The position numbers were made by a program, and so were the translations under genes. A stretch of DNA of 64,000 nucleotides from an uncultured Gemmatimonadales bacterium (GTDB lineage: Bacteria > Gemmatimonadota > Gemmatimonadetes > Gemmatimonadales > GWC2-71-9): contig CAWCLG010000003.1 in assembly GCA_963796335.1 (NCBI GenBank), positions 129,795-193,794 of the forward strand, read 5' to 3'. How positions within the stretch are numbered: the first letter of the stretch is position 1; each line of letters opens with the position of its first letter. A model generated the notes under the pieces. It worked only from the letters and a program-made list of their open reading frames with translations, made no database searches and was not told the DNA's origin. Of the stretch, positions 40,412 to 41,252 are shown piece by piece.

Positions 40412-41089
40412 ATGAAAATCGGAATTCTGGGCTCGGGGAACATGGGCGGGCGCTGGGACGGCGGTTCGCCGAGGCGGGTCACAGCGTCACCTACAGCTTC
40501 TCCCGCGACAAGGCCAAGCTTGCGCGGCTGGCGCGGCAGAGCGGCCCCCGGGCGAAGCCGGGAACGCCCGCGGAAGCGGTGCGAGGCGCGGACGCAGTGC
40601 TGATCGCGGTCCCGTGGCACCAGATGCCGAAGGTGCTGCGGCAGGCGGGAGCCTCCGGGGAAAGGTGCTCATCGACTGCACCCTGCCGATGAACCGGAAG
40701 GACACCGAGCTCGCGGTCGGATTCCGGACATCGGCGGGGAGCAGATCGCGCGCCGAGCCCGGGGGGCGCGAGTGGTGAAGGCATTCAACACCATCCCGGC
40801 CGAACTGCTGCGCGCGGGGCCGGAGGTGCTGACGGGCAAGCCCTCGGTGTGCCATTGCGGCGATGCGCCGTCGGCCAAGCGGATCGTCGCGCGGTTGATC
40901 CGGCAGATGGGCTACGAGCCCGTGGACTGCGGGAAGCTGGCGATGGCGAGGTACCTGGAGCCGATGACGCTGGTGGTGGCGGAGCTGGCGTACGAGCAAG
41001 GGAGACGGCCGGAGGTGGGGGTGACGTTCTTGAGGCGGGGCAGGGGGGCAGCGGGGCAGCGGGGCAGGAGGAAGCGCAGCGGTCGCTGA
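40412..41089 (+). pseudogene. NADP oxidoreductase, coenzyme-F420-dependent family (NADPH-dependent F420 reductase-like Rossmann protein). Frame is interrupted and the C-terminus runs into a repeat.
   Basis: MKIGILGSGNMG..ALGRRFAEAGHSVTYSFSRD, GADAVLIAVPWHQMPKVL, GKVLIDCTLP, VVKAFNTIPAELL, VCHCGDAPSAKRIVARLIRQMGYEPVDCG. The tail RGRGAAGQRGRRKRSGR is encoded by GGGGCAGC repeats. Confidence 0.7.
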
Positions 41090-41252
41090 GATACTGAGCG
41101 CAGCGAGAGACCTTGCACGGCCAGCTACGAACTCGGCCCGGCAAGATCCCTCGCTTGCGCTCGGGATGACAGGTGGCTCACTCGCCGCTCCCCGCTGCCC
41201 CGCTGCCCCGCTGCCCCGCTGCCCCGCTGCCCCGCTGCCCCGCTGCCCCGCC
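41037..41252. repeat. About 216-bp composite palindromic element: a G-array, 27 nt, a 67-nt hairpin, 27 nt, and a C-array
   Basis: Four G4-6 runs lie at 41037-41064 (GGGGCAGC-type units). Hairpin arms: GAGCGCAGCGAGAGACCTTGC (41096-41116) and GCAAGATCCCTCGCTTGCGCTC (41141-41162). Eight C4 runs occur every 8 nt from 41190 to 41246 (7 full CCCCGCTG units). The spacers are also partly complementary. Confidence 0.8.

Follow-up and report, generated by a model that had tools for sequence, protein, structure and literature searches.

The 64,000-nucleotide stretch of contig CAWCLG010000003.1 analysed here (the window) comes from an uncultured bacterium that EttA and the products of neighbouring genes assign to Gemmatimonadales. 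Two genes converge within it: ettA, which encodes the energy-dependent translational throttle ABC-F protein (41178-43230, − strand), and an NADPH-dependent F420 reductase-like gene of the PF03807 family (40412-41089, + strand), from which glgP (37700-40400) diverges on the other side. Where the convergent genes meet lies a 216-bp palindrome, the arms of which are tandem arrays of octamers and the centre of which is a smaller, imperfect palindrome. The original prediction, made from the letters of the sequence, described this palindrome as an inserted element that extends both proteins with repeat-encoded tails. By comparing the locus with syntenic relatives and metagenome contigs, we found that it belongs to a set of dispersed, lineage-enriched and modular octamer-array stems that are formed and remodelled in place and have a fixed polarity at gene ends.

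Tandem Repeats Finder resolved the 5′ arm (41035-41067, + strand) into 4.1 units of GCGGGGCA with four G-tracts (period 8, 92% matches) and the 3′ arm (41185-41251, + strand) into 8.5 units of CCGCTGCC (period 8, 98% matches), with seven exact CCCCGCTG units at 41190-41251. Read on the − strand, the sense strand of ettA, the 3′ arm is a G-rich GGGGCAGC array with eight to nine G-tracts. The arms are 97% complementary over 35 nt (41033-41067 with 41219-41253), and the pairing grows to 42 nt at 90% once the degenerate inner units are counted. Such degenerate units, among them AGGAAGCG, which pairs with CGCTCCCC, lie in the spacer behind the 5′ arm (41068-41095, + strand), together with the assembled stop codon of the reductase-like gene. 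The core that follows (41096-41170, both strands) is an imperfect palindrome of a dispersed family, TGTCAyCCTGAGCGnAGCGAAGG. It contains a central imperfect hairpin in which 41096-41116 pairs with 41141-41162; the core arm at 41140-41170 (− strand, GTCATCCCGAGCGCAAGCGAGGGATCTTGCC) is well conserved and that at 41096-41116 is degenerate. The symmetric architecture of the original prediction was therefore borne out, our coordinates being 41035-41067 and 41185-41251 for the arrays and 41096-41162 for the hairpin; the two stop codons were found where it had placed them (41087-41089 on the + strand and 41178-41180 on the − strand), and both transcripts do carry the G-rich arm, which comes first.

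Several measurements confirmed that the palindrome is real, non-random and multi-copy. Allowing up to two mismatches, GGGGCAGCGGGGCAGC matched 11 times in the window compared with 0.45 matches expected from shuffles. The 251-nt region folds with a predicted energy of −166.8 kcal/mol on the + strand (z = −7.6) and −178 kcal/mol on the − strand (z = −9.2), and no shuffle was as low on either strand. In a quadruplex-aware fold model, four of the ettA-side units are predicted to pair with the four C-units and the other four to fold as one G-quadruplex (G4); for the G arm alone, the energy model gives −53.5 kcal/mol with a G4 and −18.5 kcal/mol without. Rfam returned nothing at gathering score at the palindrome locus, where the far sub-threshold matches were to plant and animal microRNA precursor models, that is, to generic long hairpins.

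To follow the arrays beyond the window, we searched JGI metagenome contigs with an exact three-unit seed, (GGGGCAGC)3. At least 120 metagenome stretches carried three or more GGGGCAGC units, so the element is multi-copy, as the original prediction required, rather than single-copy. These stretches have 59-75% GC and, because they come overwhelmingly from short-read assemblies, the arrays are not a long-read artefact. The only locus that could be placed (L149, an array-bearing contig) belongs to Gemmatimonadales by its LepA, which is 88-94% identical to proteins of named metagenome-assembled genomes (MAGs); the metagenome loci, compared by tblastn with the proteins of the window, showed no taxonomic signal. 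A period of 8 prevailed in the 424 kb of array-seeded loci, where it was found in 121 of about 160 tandem arrays with at least 2.8 copies, and about 29 of these period-8 arrays use other units (GGGACAGC, GGCGGTAG, GGGTAAGC, AAGGAGGG and others). Period-8 arrays numbered 10 in 184 kb of syntenic relatives compared with 5 in 1.25 Mb of control loci, which were taken from other phyla through a scan with the EttA C terminus (matches listed at no more than 78% identity). The array is represented in soil metagenome contigs, where the core arm reaches a depth of about 1000-fold; both motifs also occur in soil metatranscriptome contigs, which is weak evidence given possible DNA carry-over. Of 2.9 million viral contigs, 2 had the pattern.

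The arrays follow rules of position and arm order. With the strand and frame of the upstream gene inferred from codon-position GC, about 30 of the 41 arrays that have a co-oriented upstream gene start no more than 11 nt past its in-frame stop codon, mostly 1-5 nt past it, and the same borders recur: TAGGC runs directly into GGGGCAGC, and TGAGC and TAAGC run directly into GGGG. An exactly complementary partner lies within 700 nt of 34 G-rich arrays, and it is on the 3′ side in 34 of 34 cases and on the 5′ side in none, so that the G-first order seen in the window is general. The loops between paired arrays measure 11-136 nt, with four further loops of 440-520 nt. Arrays with three, four, five and six G-tracts numbered 15, 48, 16 and 10, respectively, the lowest class being thinned by the three-unit seed. 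The C-rich arm of array stems can end within 14 nt of a start codon downstream.

We then compared the spacer behind ettA in seven syntenic contigs, which share the order thrA-thrB-thrC-SWIB-ettA-spacer-glgP, and in L208, a contig with the same convergent reductase/ettA pair as the window. Different octamers occupy the same site. Behind the ettA stop codon, L001 has (GGCGGTCA) x7.6, a gene for a 23S rRNA intervening sequence (IVS) protein (6647-7045) and (CCGCCTGA) x6.6; L084 has GGCGGTCR units, an unrelated small hairpin and CCGCCTGA units; L085 has GGCGGACA units, the core palindrome and TGTCCGCC units; and L003 has GGCGGAAC/GGCGGGAC units, the core and inverse units. Two contigs (L002 and L086) have the core palindrome only, and L087 has no arrays, core or IVS-protein gene. 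The search of relatives for an empty site, as the original prediction had suggested, found one that is nearly so: in L208 the two stop codons are separated by 51 nt, which hold a core remnant and no arrays, in the same gene order as the window. At every array-bearing orthologous site both arms are complementary, though the unit differs. At the ettA site, then, the sequence and number of arrays are not conserved and the arms match wherever they are present; arrays and core are separable, and L208 has a near-empty site. A second orthologous series, upstream of lepA, showed the same turnover, and there two independent short-read assemblies (L215 and L216) are identical across a related C-rich array of about 9-nt units.

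What the stems enclose varies: the loop holds the REP-like GTCATCCTGAGCGAAGCGAAGG palindrome, an IVS-protein gene or unrelated sequence. Related loci totalling about 0.8 Mb yielded 38 copies of the core palindrome, several of them in the order array-core-array, and the 1.25 Mb of controls yielded none. All six homologues of the IVS protein (IVP; PF05635, a four-helix bundle) in the fetched loci lie between inverted arrays (L001, L097, L188, L193, L198 and L142), an association that is biased because the loci were seeded on arrays. Five of these stems are octamer pairs and one is a heptamer pair (L142, AGGTGAG/CTCACCT). The IVP-bearing copies resemble IVS-like cassettes that stand on their own between genes. 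A variant of the core motif, GTCATTGCGAGCGAAGCGAAGCAATCC, was also seen in an alphaproteobacterium (L028, an Afipia MAG, 5686-5700), and the family of hairpins centred on GAGCGAAGCGA may extend far beyond Gemmatimonadales.

The protein tails have to be read in the light of the assembly, in which single-base indels are abundant. In the assembled sequence, at least four frames are needed to read ettA, three to read the reductase-like gene and several to read glgP. Aligned with the short-read contig L208 (90% protein identity), the reductase-like gene proved to be broken by three single-base deletions that account for all three frameshifts, two of the three within G-runs, a pattern typical of an unpolished long-read assembly. 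With so many single-base indels, neither the frames at the array borders nor the exact lengths of G-runs and numbers of units can be relied on. The ettA DNA is 79% identical to that of L208, which is too divergent for indel calls, so that the frame at the ettA end is read from a signature argument only. None of the public sequencing runs checked for the source genome contains it (word share no higher than 0.24). Many EttA database matches from the same European Nucleotide Archive study are also fragments, of 165-280 amino acids, on long contigs. Two EttA-like database proteins (P0001 and P0002) have an internal duplication of a segment of the second ABC domain; they could be assembly chimeras or real tandem duplications.

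As assembled, the reductase-like open reading frame (ORF) ends at 41087-41089 (+ strand), and its last 12 or so codons cross the G-rich arm; a TGA at 41031-41033 (+ strand), out of frame as assembled, abuts that arm in the TGAGGCGGGG signature. The ettA ORF ends at 41178-41180 (− strand), behind a repeat-encoded tail, and a TAG at 41252-41254 (− strand), likewise out of frame, abuts the array in the TAGGCGGGGCAGC signature and is the probable ancestral or true stop codon of ettA. Because the array has no stop codon in any reading frame, an ORF that enters it reads through, whether it does so by stop loss or by a frame shift, real or due to assembly error. EttA relatives terminate directly after ...HRIRYKKL(VR/VH/TV), which agrees with the earlier statement that EttA homologues stop right after a RIKYKK-type motif, and the ettA tail is not conserved; the exception is the EttA of L002, which is eight residues longer and ends in ...KKLVHGQAEGA. 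Relatives read AAG AAG CTG GTG AGG/CGG TAG GGC GG at this point and the window reads AAG AAG CTG GGT GTA GGC GGG GCA, which includes GTGTAGGCGGGGCAGC, the usual stop-plus-array signature, one base off frame. Given the indel rate and this displaced signature, assembly error seems somewhat more likely than a real ettA tail. In favour of a real tail, the upstream ORF does seem to enter the array in up to a quarter of the short-read loci. Homologues of the reductase-like protein end in a natural basic tail, ...PEVGVRFLRPGRxRxxKRR, and the window protein, which ends in ...FLRRGRGAAGQRGRRKRSGR, is about seven residues longer. Both Gly/Ala/Arg tails look like by-products and are not conserved. In practice, stop-free arrays of this kind can yield spurious Gly/Ala/Arg-rich tails in indel-prone long-read metagenome assemblies.

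Further repeats of this type lie elsewhere in the window. A third octamer array, (GGGCAGGC) x3.9, occupies 40336-40366 (+ strand, G-rich) between the divergent glgP and reductase-like genes and has the polarity of the arm at 41035. The unit counts of the arrays at 40336 and 41035 (3.9 + 4.1) compared with the 8.5 of the 3′ arm would fit one 8-unit arm split by the reductase-like gene, but the match may be coincidence, as arrays are lacking in L208 despite its identical gene order. At 29618-29687, octamer-type units GACGGGCA and GTCGGGCG form a hairpin with 30-nt arms (80% complementary) and a 10-nt loop, the G-rich arm first. This hairpin stands at a gene end, where one TAA immediately precedes the G arm (+ strand) and a second lies in the loop (− strand), and a − strand ORF may also read into one of its arms. 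A hairpin at 48345-48468 consists of CCACGGAG x2 and its partner CTCCGTGG, with 40-nt arms (85% complementary) and the purine-rich arm first, and sits between the divergent thrA and a + strand gene that starts at 48527. Short-unit array stems are not confined to octamers or to one phylum, as we found an inverted heptamer pair, CAGTAGT x4.9 and CTACTGG x4.9, in an Acidobacteriota MAG (L010, 11833-11928) and a GACGGGA x8.9 array in a Gemmatimonadaceae MAG (L048, 1377-1438). The sole Rfam matches in the window at gathering score were three tRNA genes (2061-2258 and 17999-18072). Both glgP and lepA start 5-9 nt past a conserved TATACT/TATCTT/TATATT box, with no Shine-Dalgarno sequence visible; boxes of this type were seen at 40270-40300 (− strand) in the window, at 7195-7216 in L001 and upstream of lepA in L149 and L212-L216, which suggests that the glgP and lepA mRNAs are leaderless.

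The closest parallel that we found is a class of heptamer repeats, GGGNATC in Xanthomonas and GGGGA(C/T)T in Nostoc, the latter of the cyanobacterial short tandemly repeated repetitive (STRR) type (Rehm et al. 2015, PMC4692102). Those heptamers are arranged head to tail in 2-26 copies, with four preferred, and are dispersed and mostly intergenic; their length and sequence differ among close relatives at one site, they form G4 in vitro, and each Xanthomonas genome has 70-75 convergent (inverted) array pairs adjoining stop codons (PMC4692102). The original prediction knew of no described element with 8-nt tandem repeats as inverted termini; for short tandem repeats, these pairs are a precedent. 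The Gemmatimonadales arrays resemble the heptamers in being G-rich short tandem units with a run of at least three Gs, dispersed, mostly intergenic, adjacent to stop codons and arranged in inverted pairs. They differ in their 8-nt unit, in their sequence families (GGGGCAGC, GGCGGTCA and others), in their occurrence in Gemmatimonadota with many different unit sequences in one lineage, and in often enclosing a REP-like palindrome or an IVS-protein gene, which PMC4692102 does not report. By analogy, the octamer arrays are the 8-nt counterpart of the G4-capable heptamers of Xanthomonas and Nostoc. Octamers and Gemmatimonadota are both absent from a wide-ranging survey of short tandem repeats (PMC12699852), and a full-text literature search for the core sequence and for palindromic repeats of Gemmatimonadetes returned nothing relevant.

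Parts of the palindrome recall other systems. Like the repetitive extragenic palindromic (REP) sequences and the related BIME and REPIN families, the core (GTCAyCCTGAGCGnAGCGAAGG) forms an imperfect hairpin, about 60-85 nt long, that is dispersed between genes and found at their ends, but the likeness concerns the core only, as REPs have no tandem-repeat arms. To our knowledge, the octamer arrays belong to no described REP. No RAYT-type (IS200/IS605-like) transposase was seen in the 64 kb, in which no search aimed at one was made. REPs of Escherichia coli stabilise the upstream mRNA, and REPs near a stop codon can stall ribosomes. Like a Rho-independent terminator, the palindrome is a GC-rich stem that follows directly on a gene end and is usable from both strands between convergent genes; unlike one, it has no U-tract and a far longer stem, and some copies lie between divergent genes. 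No T-run follows the stem in the window, and a scan for intrinsic terminators found no sites. In the Coxiella 23S rRNA, an IVS with a 28-bp terminal stem and an S23p ORF is excised by RNase III (PMC4990558). The likeness here is a long terminal stem round a PF05635 gene, at the ettA site of L001 and at five other loci; the differences are that our stems are tandem repeats in intergenic DNA rather than rRNA and that the window copy has no IVP gene.

Considering these data together, we favour, with a probability of about 0.6, a reading in which the palindrome, a representative of intergenic stem-loops that are widespread in soil Gemmatimonadales, grew in place and probably functions as a structure at mRNA 3′ ends, the protein tails being a by-product. 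The palindrome would have grown between the stop codons of the convergent ettA and reductase-like genes without the insertion of a unit. Its arms would lengthen and shorten independently through replication slippage (4 compared with 8 units in the window), and the stem would outlive such changes in copy number, since the units of one arm are interchangeable as partners for those of the other. The seven perfect outer units as against the degenerate inner ones, together with the unequal arms, point to recent expansion by slippage. A change of unit in step on both arms would come about by selection for pairing or by template switching between the arms. In both transcripts the stop codon would be followed by the G-rich arm, the core and the C-rich arm, which would zip into a GC stem of 33-42 bp. 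This stem would most likely act as an RNA 3′-end structure. It might block read-through or exonucleases, undergo double-strand-specific processing, or insulate convergent genes from each other or a gene from the next promoter. Surplus unpaired G-units could form a quadruplex, and in the fold model hairpin and G4 may coexist. An effect on translation termination is conceivable, as the stem begins inside the footprint of a ribosome at the stop codon.

A number of points weigh against this reading. Without a U-tract behind the stem, the palindrome is not a canonical intrinsic terminator, and a terminator role makes little sense for the element at 48345, between divergent genes. About two thirds of the arrays have no exactly complementary partner, and the partners of some are other octamers (L165 and L113), so that pairing of the arms would account for only part of the picture. 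Compensatory changes in the arms could stem from quasi-palindrome template switching, not selection. Slippage explains neither the 8-nt unit nor the rule that the G arm is 5′; one idea for the G-first order is that it would avoid exposing C-rich, Rho-loading RNA before its partner exists.

The arrays might instead be a neutral by-product, functionless slippage arrays that fill free intergenic space and whose arms are kept alike by quasi-palindrome template switching, an account that we consider possible but unlikely. It fits the fast turnover of unit sequence and copy number among close relatives, some of which are array-free, the unequal arms of 4 and 8 units, and arrays that end exactly at coding borders, as if only coding sequence were protected; the heptamer analogues, too, have had no function found for them (PMC4692102). 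Yet an added mutational asymmetry would be needed to account for the G-first order in 34 of 34 pairs, the peak of G-tract number at four, the complementary arms at five orthologous sites with different units, and the strong, lineage-specific preference for one unit length. The same tract peak, together with the run of at least three Gs in every unit and the G-rich strand being the sense strand after stop codons, would suit arrays that act as a G4, in RNA or in non-template DNA just behind the stop codon, for example by pausing polymerase or ribosomes, with the hairpin secondary. This is also what the partnerless two thirds of arrays, the predicted energies of the lone G arm (−53.5 compared with −18.5 kcal/mol) and the G4 formed in vitro by the heptamer analogues (PMC4692102) would lead one to expect. 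We nevertheless think such a role improbable: orthologous arrays in relatives have only GG runs (GGCGGTCA and GGCGGACA) and form G4 weakly, further arrays in these loci lack the capacity for G4 (AGGTGAG and CCACGGAG), and where a C-arm is present the prediction favours the duplex for the paired units.

Mobility could enter in two ways. The stems could be the termini of selfish elements like the 23S IVS, in which case the copy in the window would be a derivative without an ORF or a landing pad left unoccupied. All six IVP homologues lie between inverted arrays, including that of L001 at the ettA site and that of L142 within a heptamer pair, the four loops of 440-520 nt would fit IVP genes, and in Coxiella RNase III cuts the terminal stem of the IVS (PMC4990558). 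However, most array pairs have short, ORF-free loops, the units differ among IVP copies so that the stem is not the conserved part of a mobile unit, the array-seeded locus set biases the association, and no IVP remnant was found in the window loop, which contains the core palindrome only; we regard this origin as quite improbable. A discrete element like a miniature inverted-repeat transposable element (MITE), with octamer terminal inverted repeats, inserted at both stop codons and extending both ORFs, is closest to the original prediction and in our judgement very unlikely. The palindrome is, like a MITE, small, non-coding and multi-copy with inverted termini; it is symmetric, L208 lacks it at the corresponding site, neither tail is conserved, and in up to a quarter of the short-read loci the reading frame upstream seems to continue into the array. 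The prediction stands in so far as the tails are not conserved; the single discrete inserted unit does not. No direct repeat that would mark a target-site duplication is common to the flanks (TTCTTGAGGC and TACACCCAGC), the arms are unequal and variable in array length, the whole unit was not found a second time, the window has a single copy of the core sequence, and there is no conserved full-length unit. Contents are modular, with arrays lacking the core, cores lacking arrays and arrays round other contents, relatives have different octamers at the same site, and the matches in viral contigs were only 2 in 2.9 million. On these comparisons, insertion of a MITE-like element is largely refuted. 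Two further ideas on the origin of the arrays were dropped: that they are footprints of repeated 8-bp target duplications, as the flanks are inverted and not direct, and that they derive from the base of the core hairpin, as the units are unrelated to the core ends. Finally, it is extremely improbable that the arrays are an artefact of noisy long-read assembly. Frequent single-base deletions in the window, two of the three in G-runs, and a source genome found in no public run would be compatible with that, but octamer arrays, pairs and core recur in many independent short-read assemblies, L215 and L216 are identical across the C-rich array of about 9-nt units upstream of lepA, and syntenic relatives have analogous arrays.

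The architecture found here follows three testable rules: the arrays start at the stop codon, the G arm is always 5′, and the arms are complementary despite unit turnover. These rules bear on 3′-end formation, on the competition between quadruplex and hairpin, and on the access of ribosomes to the stop codon. In a bolder version, which we hold to be improbable but worth stating, array stems would be lineage-specific and actively maintained, not passive microsatellites: double-stranded RNA or cruciform platforms at stop codons, always with the G arm first, in whose loops selfish cargo (REP-like palindromes or Avd-like genes for 23S-IVS proteins) can land. The platforms would be processed like rRNA IVSs and, lying within the footprint of a ribosome at the stop codon, would couple translation termination to the fate of the mRNA 3′ end. 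If true, this would extend the concept of the intervening sequence from rRNA to the ends of ordinary genes. G-rich short repeats at stop codons have gone unexplained in Xanthomonas and cyanobacteria for decades, and the same architecture with another unit length in an unrelated, poorly studied soil phylum suggests that they are a general, convergent phenomenon.

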